Positions 7,912-49,034 of a DNA stretch of 64,000 bases are shown in pieces; the first letter of the stretch is position 1; the number at the start of each line of letters is the position of its first letter. Under the pieces are notes generated by a model. It worked only from the letters and a program-made list of their open reading frames with translations, was not told where the DNA came from and made no database searches. The DNA is taken from assembly GCA_003281085.1 (NCBI GenBank), contig QCCZ01000002.1:11028-75027 (forward strand). Direction: 5' to 3'. The position numbers and the translations under genes were made by a program. This DNA comes from OCS155 cluster bacterium AG-349-E07. GTDB taxonomy: Bacteria > Actinomycetota > Acidimicrobiia > Actinomarinales > Actinomarinaceae.

Positions 7912-8781
7912 TCAACCCCTCGGATGAGATTGTTTGTATTTTTTTTGGAGTTGCTTTTTAGATACATGAGTATAAATTTGTGTTGTACTAGGGTCATTGT
8001 GACCAAGTAGTTCTTGAACTATTCTCAAATCAGCACCGCCCTCTAATAAATGCGTTGCAAAAGTATGCCTAATGCTGTGTGGAAATGTTCCAGTTCTAAA
8101 TTTAACGATCCTTCTAATTTCTCTGTCGCTTAATTGGCCTCCTCTTACACCAAGAAAAAGATAATTTTTTGACTTATCATTCTCAAATTTTGGCCTTGAA
8201 TTCTCAATATATTTTTTTGTACTAACATATGCTCTTTTAGTCATAGGTAAAACTCTTTCTTTACTCCCCTTACCTAAAACTCTTATAGAATTATTTTTGT
8301 TAATACTGTTTGAAGTTAAATTTGAAACTTCACTGACTCTCAGACCAGATGAATACATTAATTCTAAAATTGCTTTATCTCTTATATCTTTTTCAGAAGA
8401 TTCAGGAAGATTGTCTAGAAGTCTATTTATATATGATGAAGTTAAAACATTTGGCAGTTTTTTCTCTACTTTTAAATTATTTACAATTTTTATTTGGTTT
8501 TGATTAAAGTAATTATTGTCAACAGCCCAAGATAAGAAAGTCCTGATTGAAGTGATTTTACGATTAATAGAAGTCTTTGAATATTTATTCTTGTTTAAAT
8601 GTTTTAGATAACTCGAGAATTCTCCAACACTTTCTGTATTTTCAAAATAGTGTTTTATGTCCGAGTTGTATGATTTGATTGTATTTTGTGAATAATTTTT
8701 CACATTATTGATATAGATTAAATATTCTTCAAGTACTTTGTTTCTATCTGATTGATTATTTAGATTCAAGTCTATTCTCAA
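7912..8781 (-). CDS. xerC: Tyrosine recombinase XerC/XerD family
   Basis: 289 aa with the C-terminal catalytic region [39 protein letters not shown]. It occupies the conserved position upstream of rpsB. The start overlaps the permease gene by 26 nt. Confidence 0.85.
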
Positions 8782-10546: not shown

Positions 10547-11302
10547 TTATTCATCTAATGTATTTTTATAATTTGGTTGTCTCTTTTCAAAAAAGGCATT
10601 CATACCTTCAATTACATCTGAATGCTGAAACCTGCTATTTTGATTAATTGTTTCGTTGGCTATCGATTTTTCAAATGTTAAATCTAGACCGTCTTTAATT
10701 TGTTGTTTAACCATACATATAGATATGAAACTTTGTTTATTTAGATTTTCAATTAAATTTTTAAATTCTGTATCCATGTTTTCAGCATTTGTTAGCTTGT
10801 AAAGGACACCTAATCTATCTAATTCCTCCCCATTGATTTCATTGGATGTCATCATTAATTCTTTAGCCTTTTGAATACCTATTATTCTTGGCAATACCCA
10901 TGATCCCCCGAAATCAACAACCAATCCCCTTCTGACAAAAACTTCAATAAACCTTGTCTGTGGGGTAGCAATAATAAAATCGCTAATAAGCATCATATTT
11001 GCTCCAGCACCTGCAGCAATTCCATCAACAAGAGAAATTATTGGTTTTTTGCAATTCCACAATTTTATAGCTGCTTTAGAGACATCATCCATAAGTGCAT
11101 TTACTGTCTCTCCTAATTGAGCGCCAGCAGAATAATTTCCGTTGATATGTTTAATTACCAGATACTTTTGGTCACTATTTTCAAACGAATCTATTTCTTC
11201 TTGCAATTTAATCCAGTCATCAGCACCAATTGCATTCATTGCATTTTCATCATTAAATTGCAAAAATTTAATCTCATTTACAATATTCGATTCAAGTGTC
11301 AT
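10547..11302 (-). CDS. Enoyl-CoA hydratase/isomerase (crotonase) family protein
   Basis: 251 aa with the crotonase oxyanion-hole region SLVDGIAAGAGANMMLISDFIIA. Confidence 0.8.
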   Translation of the reverse strand: MTLESNIVNEIKFLQFNDENAMNAIGADDWIKLQEEIDSFENSDQKYLVIKHINGNYSAGAQLGETVNALMDDVSKAAIKLWNCKKPIISLVDGIAAGAGANMMLISDFIIATPQTRFIEVFVRRGLVVDFGGSWVLPRIIGIQKAKELMMTSNEINGEELDRLGVLYKLTNAENMDTEFKNLIENLNKQSFISICMVKQQIKDGLDLTFEKSIANETINQNSRFQHSDVIEGMNAFFEKRQPNYKNTLDE

Positions 11303-11340: not shown

Positions 11341-11448
11341 ATGGGATTTGATCCGAATAAACCTTACAAAGCAAATAAGACAGACTATCTGAATATAGTT
11401 GCAGCTCTTTTTCTAACAATTATTGTTGTTATTTGGGCATTAAATTAA
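11341..11448 (+). CDS. Candidate 35-aa single-pass membrane peptide (not in ORF track)
   Basis: My translation: MGFDPNKPYKANKTDYLNIVAALFLTIIVVIWALN, a polar head followed by a clean TM helix. It fills an otherwise empty 126-bp spacer and overlaps the rnhB 3' end by 20 nt. No obvious SD. Confidence 0.3.
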   Translation: MGFDPNKPYKANKTDYLNIVAALFLTIIVVIWALN

Positions 11449-16574: not shown

Positions 16575-16643
16575 ACTTAGTGTTTTTAAGGTATATTATT
16601 AGTTGATTGTAACAACAATTAATCAATAGTTTTGTGAGGGTTG

Positions 16644-17648
16644 ATGACAAATGTTTCACTTGTTGGTTTTGGAAGAATAGGTAGAGACCTATTCAGACAG
16701 ACATTGGGAGACAAAGACATTAACATAGTCTCAATATCAGATACTGCTGATAAAAAAAACCTAATTTATTTGCTCAAATATGACTCTATATATGGAAAAT
16801 TGAATGCTGAAATTCATGAAACAGAAACAGGCATTGTTGTAGATGACAAAGAAATCATATTTAACTCTTGGAAAGATGGAGATGAAGCTGAATGGGTGAA
16901 AATTGGAACAGATGTTGTAATACTTGCAACTGGTAAACCAAAAACAAAAAAAGAAGTTGATGTACATTTATCAAAAGGGTGTAAAAAAGTAATAGTTGCC
17001 TCTACACCAGATAATTTTAAAGATATCCAAATTTTTATACCTGGTGCAAACGATGAAAATATTGATTTTAAATCAAATGTGTTTTCTCTAGGATCAAATA
17101 CTGCAAATGCTGTTGCACCAATACTAAAAGCATTAGATAAAGACGTTGGCGTAGAAAGAGCTTTTTTAACAACTGTGCATGGATATTCGAACTCAAACAG
17201 ATTAGCTGATGTAGCTGGTGAAGGATTCAGACTAAATAGGGCCGCTGGCGAAAATATAATACCTAGTATTACTAAATCATCAGAAGTAATTGTAAATGTA
17301 CTTCCTTTTCTAAAAAATAAAATAGCATCCTCATCAATGACAGTTCCGATTCCTGATGGAAGTACAGTAGACCTAACAATAGATATTAGAAAAGAAACCA
17401 CTATTGAAGAAATTAACAATCTGCTAAAAAACTATTCAGAAAATGAGTTAAAAAATATAATCGGAATTACATATGACCCAATTGTTTCGTCTGATGTAGT
17501 CAGAAGCACATTTTCTGGACTGATAGATGGTCTTGCTACAATGGGTATTAATAATAAGAAAATAAAATTAATAATTTGGTTTGATAACGGTTGGGGTTAC
17601 GCTGCAAGAATAATAGACACTATTAAACGATTGGGACAGGAACTCTAA
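16644..17648 (+). CDS. GAPDH-family paralogue lacking the catalytic Cys (probable pseudoenzyme)
   Basis: The fold is GAPDH-like (GFGRIGR, LLKYDSIYG, TTVHGYS, WFDNGWGY). The active-site box reads SLGSNTANAVAP instead of SNASCTTNCLAP (AAT at 17097..17099 where a Cys codon is expected), and MRVP is replaced by MTVP. The ATG at 16644 is preferred over TTG 16641 (GAGG 4 nt upstream). Confidence 0.8.
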   Translation: MTNVSLVGFGRIGRDLFRQTLGDKDINIVSISDTADKKNLIYLLKYDSIYGKLNAEIHETETGIVVDDKEIIFNSWKDGDEAEWVKIGTDVVILATGKPKTKKEVDVHLSKGCKKVIVASTPDNFKDIQIFIPGANDENIDFKSNVFSLGSNTANAVAPILKALDKDVGVERAFLTTVHGYSNSNRLADVAGEGFRLNRAAGENIIPSITKSSEVIVNVLPFLKNKIASSSMTVPIPDGSTVDLTIDIRKETTIEEINNLLKNYSENELKNIIGITYDPIVSSDVVRSTFSGLIDGLATMGINNKKIKLIIWFDNGWGYAARIIDTIKRLGQEL

Positions 17649-18653
17649 ATGGGTAACATAGCTATAAATGGTTTTGGAAGAATTGGTAGATCAATTCTAA
17701 GGATTATTGTAGAAAATGATTCTGATATAAATGTTGTGGCAATCAATGATTTAGGGAACTATGAAAATCTTGCATATCTGCTTAAACATGACTCAGTAAT
17801 GGGAATATTAGATAGAAATGTCAGCGTAGCTGGGGATAAATTAATTGTAGATGATAGGACTATACAATTGACTTCAATTAAAGACCCTGCGGAGCTTCCT
17901 TGGAAAGAAATGGATGTTGATGTTGTTGTTGAATCAACTGGAATATTTAGAGATAGTGAATCATTAAATAAGCATCTTGATGCTGGAGCTAAAAAAGTAT
18001 TACTAACTGTACCTCCAAAAGACGATATAGATGCGACAATAGTCCTCGGAGTCAATGATGGTGATCTTAAGCCTGAAGATAAAATAGTTTCAAATGCATC
18101 TTGCACTACAAACTGTTTAGCTCCTATAGCAAAAGTTTTAGATGATAACTTTGGAATTATATCCGGATTGATGACAACTGTACATGCATATACTAATGAT
18201 CAGGCATTAGCTGAAACTACCCATAGTGACTTTAGACGAGGACGTAGTGCAACTCAAAATATTATCCCTACATCAACAGGTGCAGCAAAAGCTGTTGGTA
18301 TGGTTCTTCCAGAACTTAATGGTAAATTAGATGGAATGGCTATGAGAGTACCAGTTCCTGATGGAAGCGTAGTTGATCTTGTCGTTGAATTAGAAAAAAA
18401 AGTCTCTATAGATGATATCAATAAGGCAGTAAAGTATGCAGCAGATAATGAGTTAAATGGAATATTAGAGTATTCAGAAGTTCCTCTTGTATCTACTGAT
18501 ATTTTGAACAATCCGCACTCAAGTATATACGATGCTTCGTCTACTCAGTTACTAGAAGGGAATCATGTAAAAGTAGTTTGCTGGTACGACAATGAGTGGG
18601 GATATTCAAATAGAGTTGTAGATTTAATAGGAAACTTACTAGATAATGGATAA
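17649..18653 (+). CDS. gap: Glyceraldehyde-3-phosphate dehydrogenase (canonical)
   Basis: 334 aa with GFGRIGR, SNASCTTNCLAP, TTVHAYT and MRVPVPDGS. It starts immediately after the stop of the paralogue (TAAATG). Confidence 0.95.
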   Translation: MGNIAINGFGRIGRSILRIIVENDSDINVVAINDLGNYENLAYLLKHDSVMGILDRNVSVAGDKLIVDDRTIQLTSIKDPAELPWKEMDVDVVVESTGIFRDSESLNKHLDAGAKKVLLTVPPKDDIDATIVLGVNDGDLKPEDKIVSNASCTTNCLAPIAKVLDDNFGIISGLMTTVHAYTNDQALAETTHSDFRRGRSATQNIIPTSTGAAKAVGMVLPELNGKLDGMAMRVPVPDGSVVDLVVELEKKVSIDDINKAVKYAADNELNGILEYSEVPLVSTDILNNPHSSIYDASSTQLLEGNHVKVVCWYDNEWGYSNRVVDLIGNLLDNG

Positions 18654-45199: not shown

Positions 45200-46183
45200 A
45201 TGATAAAAAATTTATCTCCTTCAAGAGCATCTCAATTTAAAACCTGTCCCAAGCAATTTAAATTCGCAAATGTTGATAAATTAAAAGAACCCACAAATGA
45301 AGTTCAAGCAAAAGGAACTACTGTACATCAAGCACTAGAAGATTTGTTTGATTTGCCAAAAGAAGAGAGAAGTATTGAAAAACTACATAATTTATTTCGA
45401 GATGCTTGGACAAAAGTTAGAGGGAATGATGAACATCATAATTTATTTTCGAATGTAGAAGAAGAAAGAGAATGGGGTGTTGATGGTCTTAAATTGCTTA
45501 ATAATTATATGGAAATAGAAGACCCTACAAGTTTTGAACCTTTAGAGCGCGAGCGTTGGGTTAGAGGCTCAATCAATGACTTAAATTTAAGAGGTATCTT
45601 AGACAGGATGGACAGAAATCAAAATGGTGATTTAATCATTGTGGACTACAAGAGTGGAAAAGCTCCAATGGCTAAATATAAAGAACCTAGATTTTTTGCT
45701 TTAAAATTATATGCGCTTCTGATCAAAGAAGAGCTCGGTGAGATGCCAGTTGAGCTAAAGTTAATTTACCTGAAAAATTCAACTATTCACACATTGAAAA
45801 TAACCGAAGAAGATTTATCAAATGCAAAAAATGAAATTTTAGAAATTTGGGCAAATATAAAAAAAGCATATGAAGAGAATGAGTTTCCTGCAATAAAAAA
45901 TACATTGTGTGACTGGTGTTACTACAAACCAATCTGTCCAGAATTTAATGAAAATGCTCCAAATACCGAAAATCTCAGAATTATAAACGAATCAATAACT
46001 GAATTAGAGGAAGAAATTGAAGTTTTAGATATGTTTAAAGATGATGATAAAATTCCAGTAGATAGTCCGATTGGTAACTCTAACAGAAAAGATATTGAAT
46101 CAAAAATTTCTGAATTAGAAAATCAAAAAAACGAAATTCAAACTGAAATCGAAAAGCTTTTAAGGGAACAGTCCTCTAGTTAA
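45200..46183 (+). CDS. PD-(D/E)XK nuclease, RecB/AddB/Cas4-like with 4-Cys cluster and acidic coiled-coil tail
   Basis: 327 aa with SPSRASQFKTCPKQF (first Cys), GILDRMDRNQNGDLIIVDYKSGK (nuclease core) and CDWCYYKPICP (C-x2-C-x5-C). The C-terminal ~70 aa is a Glu/Ile/Asn-rich coil. Confidence 0.7.
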   Translation: MIKNLSPSRASQFKTCPKQFKFANVDKLKEPTNEVQAKGTTVHQALEDLFDLPKEERSIEKLHNLFRDAWTKVRGNDEHHNLFSNVEEEREWGVDGLKLLNNYMEIEDPTSFEPLERERWVRGSINDLNLRGILDRMDRNQNGDLIIVDYKSGKAPMAKYKEPRFFALKLYALLIKEELGEMPVELKLIYLKNSTIHTLKITEEDLSNAKNEILEIWANIKKAYEENEFPAIKNTLCDWCYYKPICPEFNENAPNTENLRIINESITELEEEIEVLDMFKDDDKIPVDSPIGNSNRKDIESKISELENQKNEIQTEIEKLLREQSSS

Positions 46184-47425
46184 TTTTGCAGCAGCTACTC
46201 TTTTAATTCCTTTTATCAATGCAGCTGTACGCAAATCACAGTTTTGTTTTTGCGAAATAGTCCAAACTTCCTCAAATGAAGTAAGCATTACATCGATAAG
46301 CTTTTCATGTAATTCAGTTTCTTTCCATAAATAATTTTGAGTATTTTGTACCCATTCAAAATAACTAGCAGTAATTCCTCCTGCATTAGCTAATATATCT
46401 GGAATAATAATTACTCCATTTTCTCTTAAAATCTTGTCAGCATTTAAAGTTGTTGGCGAATTTGCACCTTCAATAAGCACATTTGTTTTAATTTTTTCTG
46501 CGTTACTAGAAGTAATTACACCTCCGACAGCTGCAGGTATTAGAACATCACATTCTATTTCTAGAATTTCACCTTCATAGTCTTCGCCACCTTCAAAGCC
46601 TTTTACAGAGGGGGTTTTTGCAATATGTTTAAAAAGTTCCGGAATATTTAATCCATCTTTATTAAATACTGCACCACCTAGATCGTTAACTGCAATTACT
46701 TTAGCTCCCCGTTCATAAGAATCTAAAGCAGCATATCTTCCGACATTGCCAAATCCTTGAATTACAACGCGTGAATCCCCATATTTTTTACCTAGTTTTT
46801 TCATTGCAGCTTCCCCTACAGCCACAGCTCCTCTTCCTGTTGATTCTCTTCTTGTTATAGAACCTCCCAGTGAAACTGGTTTTCCTGTGACTATTCCAGG
46901 TTGAGGAGAGCCAACAAAGTTACTATACGTATCCATAATCCATGCCATTGTTTGCTCATCTGTGCCGAGATCTGGAGCAGGTATGTCTTTATCGACCCCT
47001 ATAATCGGAAGTAATTCTGCTGTATACCTTCTAGTAACTCTTTGCTTTTCAGCTCTTGTTAAAGGATTAGGATCAATGGCTACTCCACCCTTAGCTCCAC
47101 CATATGGTAATCCAACAATTGCAGATTTCCAAGACATCAATATAGCCAAAGCTGTAACTTCACCTAGATTTACATCTGGAGCATATCTTATACCACCTTT
47201 AGTAGGTCCCATCGACAAAACATGCTGGACTCGATATCCTACAACTGTTTCTACTTCGTCATATTCATCCCTTCTAAAAGGAAAAGTGACAACTAAAGAC
47301 CTTTGGGGTAATTTAAGCCTTTCTCTTATATTGGAATCAAGATTTATTAAATTAGAGACTTCGTCATACTGTTTGATGACTTCTTTATACATATGTGAGT
47401 CAAAGAGATTATTTTCAACTATCAC
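46160..47425 (-). CDS. gdhA: Glutamate dehydrogenase
   Basis: 421 aa with GLPYGGAKGG and a Rossmann region (VVIQGFGNVG). GTG start at 47425, or an ATG 11 codons downstream. Confidence 0.9.
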   Translation of the reverse strand: MIVENNLFDSHMYKEVIKQYDEVSNLINLDSNIRERLKLPQRSLVVTFPFRRDEYDEVETVVGYRVQHVLSMGPTKGGIRYAPDVNLGEVTALAILMSWKSAIVGLPYGGAKGGVAIDPNPLTRAEKQRVTRRYTAELLPIIGVDKDIPAPDLGTDEQTMAWIMDTYSNFVGSPQPGIVTGKPVSLGGSITRRESTGRGAVAVGEAAMKKLGKKYGDSRVVIQGFGNVGRYAALDSYERGAKVIAVNDLGGAVFNKDGLNIPELFKHIAKTPSVKGFEGGEDYEGEILEIECDVLIPAAVGGVITSSNAEKIKTNVLIEGANSPTTLNADKILRENGVIIIPDILANAGGITASYFEWVQNTQNYLWKETELHEKLIDVMLTSFEEVWTISQKQNCDLRTAALIKGIKRVAAAKLTRGLFP

Positions 47426-47505
47426 AAGCTCATAATATATAGGTTTTGGCTAGAAAGATTGCTATTTTATTTTTTTTGTCTCACTGAATTTCTAAATTAT
47501 TAAAT

Positions 47506-47622
47506 ATGAAAGATAAAGAAATACTTAAATTACTTGAAACGTCCGGGATCAAAGCAAATTTTATTTGCATAGACCACAATGACAGATGCAATTGTCATAG
47601 AATATATGATGAAGCAGCATAA
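47506..47622 (+). CDS. Candidate 38-aa Cys/His-rich peptide (not in ORF track)
   Basis: My translation: MKDKEILKLLETSGIKANFICIDHNDRCNCHRIYDEAA. It ends 13 nt before the next start. No obvious SD of its own. Confidence 0.25.
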   Translation: MKDKEILKLLETSGIKANFICIDHNDRCNCHRIYDEAA

Positions 47623-47635
47623 ATTAGGAGAATAG

Positions 47636-48157
47636 ATGAAAGATTTGATCTGGGATATTGCCAAAAGTGGAGAGGAAGCTCTAGAAAACACAGAACTACA
47701 AACAATTGAAGAACCTAAAGAATTATTTGTAGCAAGAGGAGTTTCTATAGAAGCAAAAGACAGTACTTATAAAATCAATAAATTTGTAGATAATAAAATT
47801 GCACTCGATGTTCAGGAAAAAGGAGCGATAAAAATATCTGATACTGTCTTTAATTACTCTAAAAGTTACAAATCAAAAACTCTAGATTTAAAAAAATTAA
47901 TTGATTGGGCTACCAACAAGAAACTTTCAGATGATGATATTGAAAACTTAGTAGCGCTTTGTGGAAATACTTTTGTACCAAAATTAAGGGGCCTAGATGC
48001 AGTTGCAGAAAAAAAAGGAATGGATAAACAGCTAGCAAGAGATACTTTTATTGAAAAAATTTGGGATGAGGAACCTAAATTACAAGTCATTAAAACAAGC
48101 AACGATACCGCTCCAGTATGGGCGAAAGATTTGAAAGAAATGGAGAGAAGAAAATGA
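47636..48157 (+). CDS. Hypothetical protein (173 aa), partner of the SSAP gene
   Basis: Strong AGGAG (47626..47630) 5 nt upstream of the ATG. Its TGA overlaps the ATG of the next gene (ATGA). I recognise no family motif. Confidence 0.6.
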   Translation: MKDLIWDIAKSGEEALENTELQTIEEPKELFVARGVSIEAKDSTYKINKFVDNKIALDVQEKGAIKISDTVFNYSKSYKSKTLDLKKLIDWATNKKLSDDDIENLVALCGNTFVPKLRGLDAVAEKKGMDKQLARDTFIEKIWDEEPKLQVIKTSNDTAPVWAKDLKEMERRK

Positions 48158-48582
48158 AACAATTGTATGAACTATCAAGAAAATTTCCAAAAGATTGGAT
48201 AAAAAAAGCACCTAAGGGCAAGTTTGGAAATTACGTTCCACATCCTGTAATTACACAACGTCTATTAGAAGTTTGTGGACCTTTTAATTGGGAAGTTGTT
48301 GAATTGATCAGACAGGAAACTACAGGAGCAGTAGTAGGTTGCTTTGGAAAGTTGACCGTTGAAATTGATGGCAAATTAGTCACTGTAACATCTATCGGTG
48401 ACGTAGAGCACGATCAAAAAAATGATGGTAGTAATGCAAAGCATGCAGAGTCAGATTCTTTCAAAAGGTGTGCGATGAAACTCGGGCTTGGATTACATTT
48501 ATGGGCTGGAGAAGAATATTATCTTGATAAACAACTTGATAAAAAAGAAATAGGAAAAAAAACTAAGCTTCAATCTGCTTGA
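48154..48582 (+). CDS. Rad52/Sak-like single-strand annealing protein (SSAP)
   Basis: 142 aa from ATG 48154 (GGAG 8 nt upstream). FGNYVPHPVITQRLLEVCGPFNWEVVEL...GKLTVEIDGKLVTVTSIGD...NAKHAESDSFKRCAMKLGLGLHLWAGEEYYL matches the Rad52-superfamily annealase pattern. Confidence 0.65.
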   Translation: MKQLYELSRKFPKDWIKKAPKGKFGNYVPHPVITQRLLEVCGPFNWEVVELIRQETTGAVVGCFGKLTVEIDGKLVTVTSIGDVEHDQKNDGSNAKHAESDSFKRCAMKLGLGLHLWAGEEYYLDKQLDKKEIGKKTKLQSA

Positions 48583-49034
48583 TCAATTAACTCACCATTT
48601 CTAGCAGTCAATACAAAGGTTGCAGGACCATCGTTGATTAAACCTACATCCATCATGGCGCCGAAGCTTCCAGTCTTTACAGTTACATGTTCAGAAAATT
48701 CCTGAACAATTTTTGAAATCATCTCTTCAGCGATTTCTGGAGATTTTGCTTTAACAAACGAAGGCCTGTTCCCTTTTAGAAATTTTCCAGCTAACGTGAA
48801 CTGACTAACAATTAAAATCTCTCCTGATATGTCTACAATTGATTTATTCATTTTTAAATTTTCATCAGAAAAAACTCTAAAGTTTAAAATTTTATTTATC
48901 AGAATATGACTTTCAACTTCAGAATCAGCTTCTTCAATCCCCCATAAAAGTAAATAGCCGTGATTAATTTCTGAAATAATACTTGAGTCAACTTTTACGT
49001 AAGCACTTTTAACTCTCTGCAAAACAACTTTCAT
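48570..49034 (-). CDS. dtd: D-aminoacyl-tRNA deacylase
   Basis: 154 aa with MKVVLQRV, VSQFTL and NDGPATF. Confidence 0.9.
   Translation of the reverse strand: MKVVLQRVKSAYVKVDSSIISEINHGYLLLWGIEEADSEVESHILINKILNFRVFSDENLKMNKSIVDISGEILIVSQFTLAGKFLKGNRPSFVKAKSPEIAEEMISKIVQEFSEHVTVKTGSFGAMMDVGLINDGPATFVLTARNGELIDQAD

Follow-up and report, generated by a model that had tools for sequence, protein, structure and literature searches.

A core gdhA-dtd operon encoding a predicted Rad52-fold annealing protein in the streamlined marine Actinomarinales

The closest described relatives of the system considered here are the Rad52-like single-strand annealing proteins (SSAPs) of phages, and SSAPs found in bacterial chromosomes are normally taken to be prophage cargo. 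A cellular precedent is Deinococcus DdrA, a Rad52-family protein of the radiation and desiccation damage regulon, for which, to our knowledge, neither an operonic partner nor a micro-open reading frame (micro-ORF) is known; among phage modules, P22 carries a very small ORF, arf, just upstream of erf. The Actinomarinales are among the smallest free-living cells and Actinomarina is among the most abundant bacteria of the ocean, and two published genome descriptions of the order make no mention of Rad52 or annealing. The present analysis concerns a three-gene cassette in a 64,000-nucleotide (nt) stretch of the genome of OCS155 cluster bacterium AG-349-E07 (contig QCCZ01000002.1; hereafter the window), encoding a Cys/His micro-protein of 38 amino acids (aa), an undescribed partner protein of 173 aa and a predicted Rad52-fold SSAP of 142 aa. 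The explanation preferred here, with a probability of roughly 60%, is that the cassette is a phage-derived recombination module that was captured once by an ancestor of the sampled Candidatus Actinomarinales and has been kept between gdhA and dtd as a core operon for damage-inducible annealing and repair.

The cassette lies on the forward strand between two Pfam-confirmed genes of the reverse strand, gdhA (46160-47425) and dtd (48570-49034). The micro-ORF (47506-47622; MKDKEILKLLETSGIKANFICIDHNDRCNCHRIYDEAA) is followed, after a 13-nt gap in which a Shine-Dalgarno AGGAG can be read from the sequence (47626-47630), by the partner gene (47636-48157). The partner stop codon and the start codon of the SSAP gene (48154-48582) share the overlap ATGA (48154-48157), through which the SSAP is predicted to be translationally coupled to its partner, and the 3' end of the SSAP gene overlaps that of dtd by 13 nt. 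The coordinates, gaps and overlaps reported for the three ORFs in a preliminary description of this DNA were all present, and its claim that a 210-bp spacer is the longest in the window stood for the longest stretch without an ORF of at least 60 aa (47426-47635, 210 nt) and fell for the true spacer between gdhA and the cassette, which is 80 nt, the larger gap including the micro-ORF. An alternative 154-aa reading of the SSAP from an upstream in-frame ATG at 48118 is common in databases, and is the call used in the largest database SSAP cluster (P0001, 619 member sequences); this start is not conserved, and orthologues keep the start at the 48154 ATGA overlap, giving 142 aa. Nearly all orthologous loci likewise keep an (A)GGAG within the 13-16 nt that separate the micro-ORF from the partner gene, L037 having GGAAG at that position.

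Placement of the cassette in the core chromosome is evident from 26 orthologous chromosomal loci, which represent 19-22 distinct sequences. The gene order PD-(D/E)XK nuclease, gdhA, micro-ORF, partner, SSAP, dtd, PNPOx is identical in all 26, and this synteny reaches lineages in which gdhA is only 74-75% identical (L004 and L037). All three cassette frames are intact in every locus, a recurrence far beyond chance that identifies the three forward-strand ORFs as real genes. The median ratio of nonsynonymous to synonymous substitution rates (dN/dS) was 0.048 (SSAP), 0.073 (partner) and 0.27 (micro-ORF), alongside 0.057 for gdhA, 0.17 for dtd and 0.11 for the Cas4-like PD-(D/E)XK nuclease, i.e. 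the cassette is under purifying selection in every chromosomal locus recovered, and the SSAP is as constrained as gdhA, a central metabolic enzyme. The partner is 100% identical to that of Candidatus Actinomarina (OCS155 clade) single-cell genomes.

There do not appear to be any traces of mobility around the cassette. The GC content of the window is approximately 32% throughout with no GC or compositional anomaly at the cassette, no tRNA genes occur in the window, and the cassette is neither flanked by phage structural, lysis or integrase genes nor bracketed by att-like repeats; a recent insertion was rejected for the lack of att-like repeats, a tRNA or a GC shift. The remaining genes of the window serve core functions, including ribosomal proteins, EF-Ts, ProRS, Fpg, SMC, a XerC/D-type recombinase and fatty-acid oxidation. 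The lack of a prophage setting noted in the preliminary description is thus borne out, as is its suggestion of a domesticated module, for which vertical inheritance, strong purifying selection and synteny in 26/26 loci all speak; two of the three outcomes that it had named as contrary, disruption of the frames in relatives and confinement of the cassette to their prophages, were looked for, and the relatives carry the cassette intact and in their chromosomes; the third, a lack of significant similarity to SSAP families, is contradicted by the matches given below. An inert prophage remnant, or a cassette for anti-phage defence or counter-defence, would be in keeping with a phage origin and with the Cas4-like nuclease nearby, but both are highly improbable. 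Intact frames in 26/26 loci and dN/dS values of 0.05-0.27 rule out decay, there are no prophage genes, att-like repeats or tRNA, and the locus is a conserved core region rather than a variable island. In PADLOC-DB 2.0 the nuclease gene alone was matched (Cas4/DruK profiles), with no match for the micro-ORF, partner or SSAP, on which ground a defence system was rejected and the role in phage defence entertained in the preliminary description found no support.

The 142-aa protein is, from profile comparison and structure prediction, a minimal Rad52-fold SSAP, in agreement with the superfamily assignment first proposed for it. It matched Pfam PF04098 (Rad52_Rad22) with 25.7 bits, above the gathering cut-off of 20.3 (E 1.2e-5), with residues 6-121 aligned to profile positions 8-139 of 153; weaker similarity was found to the Mgm101 family PF06420, and among PHROGs it matched PHROG 3290 'single strand annealing protein' (1.2e-12) and an Erf-like family. 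Searching the PDB by sequence, with a profile of the SSAP family, gave nothing significant; a search by fold was required. The AlphaFold2 model, built from 21 homologues, has a predicted local distance difference test (pLDDT) score of 86.5 and a predicted template modelling (TM) score of 0.77. Its best PDB match in Foldseek was yeast Mgm101 (9yi6; E 3e-6, TM 0.61, probability 1.0), and it also matched the human RAD52 N-terminal rings 5jrb and 8bjm with probability 1.0, matches that place it in the Rad52 N-terminal fold, a three-stranded sheet packed on a long helix. Across the 21 homologues the core SD-x-FKR-x(4)-GLGLHLW is invariant or nearly so, with K104 nearly invariant and R105 invariant; these two residues may be the equivalents of K152/R153, the basic pair of the RAD52 DNA-binding groove.

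Two further observations on the SSAP family were made. The PDB chain 8pq8_A (169 aa, 'Topoisomerase') aligned to the SSAP profile across KR...GLGL-x-(W/Y) at a non-significant E of 0.85, and may be a Sak3/DUF1071-type annealase with a misleading name. Separately, the phage homologues P0058, P0067 and P0073 end in acidic-aromatic tips (...EQEPF, ...EEPFE and ...PPGAF) which resemble the tips of the single-stranded DNA-binding proteins (SSBs) encoded just downstream in L059 and L061 (...DEEPF and ...EHEPF), whereas the tail of the chromosomal Actinomarina SSAP is short and basic (...KLQSA).

The structural match to Mgm101, a mitochondrial genome-maintenance annealase, raises the possibility that the module is a constitutive genome maintenance or replication factor of the same kind, acting in recombination-dependent replication restart or nucleoid maintenance and offsetting recombination mediators lost in streamlining. 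An extremely streamlined genome in which the SSAP gene is very strongly conserved would be compatible with such a role, but the predicted promoter of the operon, described below, resembles an inducible class, and this explanation is considered quite unlikely.

The origin of the module is indicated by the relationship of the chromosomal SSAPs to those of phages. In a neighbour-joining tree, computed without support values, all 22 distinct sequences of the chromosomal SSAP group together to the exclusion of viral ones, and the clade so formed is nested among viral SSAPs. Outside the chromosomal clade, every SSAP homologue with an examined context was that of a phage: genes for tape measure protein, portal, holin, amidase, WhiB or terminase were seen in the loci L007, L130 and L131, homologues are encoded by annotated Mycobacterium phages of cluster S, Marvin among them, and at least 346 IMG/VR contigs hold a relative. 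As the chromosomal SSAPs form one clade nested among those of phages, the simplest history would be one uptake from a phage, with vertical inheritance thereafter. One homologous locus was found in a metagenome-assembled genome (MAG) named 'Gammaproteobacteria bacterium MED855' (L036, PAEL01000130.1); its partner-SSAP pair and neighbouring genes are like those of the IMG/VR loci L098, L114 and L117 (GC 0.33-0.36), and it probably derives from a phage and was assigned to this gammaproteobacterial MAG by mis-binning.

Comparison of the genes beside viral SSAPs extends this relationship to the partner. Among the viral SSAP loci examined, a Cas4-like exonuclease directly preceded the SSAP in 31, and the partner did so in 11. 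Distant homologues of the partner, with 20-40% identity, directly adjoin a Rad52-like SSAP in phage or mobile contigs: the partner precedes and overlaps the SSAP in L012/L013, the order is reversed, again with overlap, in L009-L011, an exonuclease (phrog_284) is followed by partner and SSAP in L098/L107/L112-L117 and L120-L126, and partner and SSAP are followed by a replication initiator, an unassigned 182-aa gene and an SSB in L069/L095/L110. The SSAP adjoins the partner in every partner-bearing locus, and five divergent lineages show this adjacency, which occurs with either gene first. Since it stands directly beside the SSAP in phages in either order, the partner is taken to be a cognate and probably non-enzymatic cofactor of this SSAP lineage. 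The proposal in the preliminary description of an undescribed module with an uncharacterised partner protein is borne out too, the partner family accompanying the SSAP in phages as well, and both of its alternatives, the domesticated module and the undescribed one, hold at once.

The partner itself belongs to a family that is, to judge from its sequences, narrow, acidic (isoelectric point, pI, of approximately 5) and undescribed. There was no match in Pfam, PHROG, NCBIfam, PADLOC or PDB sequences, also when 13 divergent members were used singly as queries. A profile search of 1.84 billion representative proteins returned 45 matches, about ten of them full length; a broadened profile gathered 313 members, none of them named, with no domain fusion among the 120 listed, and single distant members used as queries against IMG/VR returned nothing new. 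The AlphaFold2 model of the partner has a pLDDT of 85 and no significant fold match in the PDB (best E 0.88). Against BFVD only weak matches were obtained (E 4e-3 to 0.3, TM of at most 0.37), to uncharacterised phage proteins, actinophage RecB-like exonucleases, Gp157 and a host-nuclease inhibitor. Almost no polar residues are invariant across the family, and conserved catalytic residues are lacking.

Several identities were considered for the partner and rejected. A degenerate or novel exonuclease is contradicted by the lack of a nuclease profile match and of all but a few invariant polar residues, by hhalign probabilities below 1% against both the Cas4-like and the phrog_284 exonucleases, and by phages of the L098/L117 type, which carry a separate exonuclease beside the partner. 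The 246-aa phage gene upstream of the SSAP in L007 is a PD-(D/E)XK exonuclease and not a partner homologue. A detached C-terminal domain of the long SSAPs and an SSB were also set aside, there being no profile-profile signal between the partner and either the C-terminus of Marvin gp63 or the SSB clusters.

From gene context, the partner may be an adaptor or loader, a regulator of assembly, or a protector of DNA ends. A specific form of the last of these is that it is an inhibitor or end protector like Gam, Gp157 or Abc, shielding linear ends from host nucleases as the SSAP anneals them, with the chromosomal copy channelling breaks into annealing. The acidity of the partner, its lack of conserved catalytic residues, its position beside the SSAP, where phages place such genes, and the weak BFVD matches to 'Siphovirus Gp157' (E 0.11) and 'host-nuclease inhibitor' (E 0.31) could all be read in this way. 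However, the TM of these two matches was at most 0.26, 13 diverse members gave no Pfam or PHROG match to the Gam/Gp157 families (PF07352/PF05565-type) at E values up to 1, and a permanent inhibitor of host end-processing is hard to square with strong purifying selection, such that this identity is regarded as a minority possibility.

Control of the operon in response to DNA damage is suggested by a promoter-like element in the 80-nt spacer, TGTC-N12-TAAATT (47477-47498, forward strand), which comprises a GTC box of the -26 type and a -10 hexamer. In an alignment of the spacer, TGTC-N12-TAnnnT is invariant in 26/26 chromosomal loci, and it is kept in L004 and L037 though the rest of the spacer there is unalignable. 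The hexamer ends 6-8 nt before the micro-ORF ATG across loci (7 nt here), and because of this spacing the mRNA would be leaderless, starting at the micro-ORF start codon; leaderless mRNAs are common in Actinobacteria. No sigma-70 -35/-10 promoter was predicted on the forward strand. The actinobacterial promoter motif of the RecA-independent DNA-damage regulator PafBC is tGTCgg(N10)tA(N3)T, whose GTC triplet is strictly conserved and is the part recognised by PafB, and which lacks a -35 element (PMC8635444). The cassette element conforms to this motif, with which it shares a 22-nt geometry, and the operon would on this basis be transcribed from a PafBC-type promoter as part of the DNA-damage response. 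No WYL gene lies within the 64-kb window, and no credible Rfam match to an RNA element was found in the spacer or the cassette. A second conserved block occupies the gdhA-proximal part of the spacer (47426-47470; CATAATATATAG on the forward strand) and is likely a divergent gdhA promoter, which would place two promoters back to back in the spacer.

The predicted promoter also bears on a different role for the same proteins, namely horizontal gene flow, in which the SSAP and partner would anneal incoming or displaced single-stranded DNA (ssDNA) to the lagging strand at replication forks, a natural form of recombineering that would raise the recombination signal of Actinomarina. Phage SSAPs of the Rad52 superfamily are established to act in this manner in recombineering, a high homologous-recombination signal has been reported for Actinomarina populations, and the constraint on the SSAP is that of a central metabolic enzyme. 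However, no competence or DNA-uptake genes were seen near the cassette, and the conserved promoter geometry favours damage control over constitutive or competence control. Gene flow as the function of the operon is judged unlikely.

The micro-ORF is present in 26/26 chromosomal loci, always with 38 codons, and is absent from all phage loci; a scan of IMG/VR with a strict pattern gave only two matches, both unrelated. The Cys/His cluster has the form C21-x2-H24-x3-C28-x-C30-H31, and all five of these residues are invariant, along with M1, E5, G14, A37 and A38. Alternating synonymous codons specify the invariant Cys, His, Gly and Ala, and the count of variable sites at the three codon positions is 24/16/35, third positions varying most. 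No match was found in Pfam, PHROG, NCBIfam or PADLOC. These patterns of substitution mark the micro-ORF as a real gene, specific to the chromosomal cassette and, by its codon variation, under selection at the protein level, and the spacing of the Cys and His residues is suggestive of a metal-binding knuckle. The C-terminal Ala-Ala (codons at 47614-47622) occurs in all 19 distinct orthologous sequences, with synonymous variation; such a C-terminus recalls the determinant of ssrA-type ClpXP degrons, and by this analogy, which is speculative, the micro-protein might be unstable.

A combination of these elements into a working system can be proposed under the preferred explanation of a captured, damage-inducible annealing and repair operon. 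Upon DNA damage, the operon would be transcribed from the -26/-10 promoter as a leaderless mRNA, and the SSAP would assemble into a Rad52-like ring on resected ssDNA and anneal complementary strands, with RecA-independent single-strand annealing or repair of gaps and forks as the outcome. The acidic partner would bind the SSAP as a stoichiometric cofactor, either loading it onto ssDNA or ends or regulating assembly of its ring, and would take over from the C-terminal interaction domain or tail, or from the adjacent exonuclease, on which phage SSAPs normally draw. The micro-protein may be a metal-binding regulatory or structural subunit that was added after domestication. Resection might be supplied by the nearby Cas4/AddB-type nuclease.

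Several points weigh against this explanation. The operon contains no exonuclease, and the Cas4-like nuclease nearby showed no specific link to it. The neighbour-joining tree from which the phage origin is read carries no support values. The fold of the partner has no informative match, so that its role is deduced from gene context. Finally, the loose motif TGTC-N12-TAnnnT is not enriched in the window, with 12 matches against 11 expected, and the weight of the promoter assignment is therefore borne by conservation and position; the only other intergenic copy (11361-11382, reverse strand) precedes an enoyl-CoA hydratase gene (10547-11302) by approximately 58 nt, probably by chance.

The nuclease in question is a 327-aa PD-(D/E)XK protein of the Cas4/AddB type (45200-46183, forward strand; Pfam PDDEXK_1, 5.8e-34), which is syntenic in relatives and separated from the cassette by gdhA on the opposite strand. 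The preliminary description had pointed to it as the only nuclease near the cassette, and conserved proximity is the only tie that was found: its upstream region has no conserved GTC box, and it was rejected as an orthologue of the exonuclease encoded ahead of the partner in phages, there being no similarity between the two and no common promoter motif. It is accordingly retained as a candidate resection partner only. The nuclease gene and gdhA are convergent and their 3' ends overlap by 24 nt (46160-46183), an arrangement conserved in relatives that is another sign of extreme gene packing. Elsewhere in the window, a gene of the Phage_integrase family (7912-8781, reverse strand) stands between an ABC transporter permease gene and rpsB, and looks like a housekeeping XerC/D-type recombinase rather than a prophage marker, and two tandem GAPDH paralogues of 335 and 334 aa lie head to tail at 16641-18653 on the forward strand.

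A fixed and strongly constrained core SSAP is of interest in a globally abundant, streamlined marine bacterium in which each retained gene is presumed to pay its way, and it places the Actinomarina protein among the very few candidates for a cellular bacterial Rad52-type pathway of repair or recombination. The partner family, which travels with Rad52-like annealases in phages, is a candidate for a missing cofactor, of practical interest for recombineering, and the predicted PafBC-type leaderless promoter would link an uncultured lineage to the actinobacterial DNA-damage response. A more far-reaching version, offered tentatively and held to be doubtful, is that the Actinomarinales rely on a domesticated phage annealase complex, consisting of a Rad52-fold ring, an acidic SSAP cofactor of a new class and a metal-binding micro-protein, as a principal engine of recombination and repair. 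Under ssDNA-sensing control of the PafBC type, the complex would carry out RecA-independent annealing of resected or incoming ssDNA, partly replacing canonical mediators lost in streamlining and feeding the unusually strong recombination signal of the populations. If this were true, the partner would become the first dedicated cofactor without nuclease function to be described for Rad52-type annealases of bacteria and phages, and could improve recombineering in Actinobacteria.

Set against the described systems, the Actinomarina SSAP is closest to the Rad52-like SSAPs of phages (Sak/Erf-type, PHROG 3290, Marvin gp63), with which it shares the fold, the sequence family and the KR...GLGLHLW core, and it is likewise translationally coupled, by prediction, to an upstream gene, as in phage recombination modules. 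It differs in being chromosomal, vertically inherited and core, and in consisting of a 142-aa annealing domain with a short basic tail, whereas Marvin gp63 has 350 aa and other phage homologues carry acidic tips of the ...EPF type; the upstream gene is the partner instead of a Cas4-like exonuclease, and no SSB gene follows downstream. The cassette also departs from the SynExo pairing of an exonuclease with an SSAP, which is defined by an adjacent 5'-3' exonuclease and by location in a phage or prophage module, as the closest nuclease gene is found at a distance of 1.3 kb, on the far side of gdhA, and the context is core in 26 loci. Of the accessory genes known from the Lambda Red and P22 modules (Gam, Abc1/2 and Arf), it shares the concept of an SSAP encoded with small modulators of recombination, although neither the partner nor the micro-ORF has detectable sequence or profile similarity to them.

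The RAD52 N-terminal domain and Mgm101 provide the best structural matches of the SSAP (Foldseek probability 1.0, TM 0.5-0.6), at a sequence identity of approximately 17% and without the C-terminal half of RAD52 that interacts with RPA and RAD51. The likeness to DdrA is one of kind and setting: both are bacterial, chromosomally fixed proteins of the Rad52 superfamily behind a promoter element of DNA-damage type, here a predicted one, and the cellular, vertically inherited, non-prophage status that characterizes DdrA is seen for the Actinomarina SSAP in its synteny, monophyly and purifying selection. The two differ in phylum and in the element itself, a radiation/desiccation response motif (RDRM) palindrome in the one and a PafBC-type -26/-10 element in the other. 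Compared with PafBC-dependent (RecA-NDp) promoters, the cassette element has the same 22-nt geometry, the invariant GTC and no -35 element, while AC, TC or similar takes the place of the GG after GTC in the AT-rich Actinomarina genome. What was known of such proteins is thus the Rad52 superfamily to which the SSAP belongs, and what is new is its place in a core operon, inherited vertically, of a free-living and extremely streamlined bacterium, with DdrA as the nearest precedent, together with an undescribed partner family that travels with the SSAP in phages, a Cys/His micro-protein found only in the chromosomal cassette, and the apparent footprint of a PafBC-type promoter.

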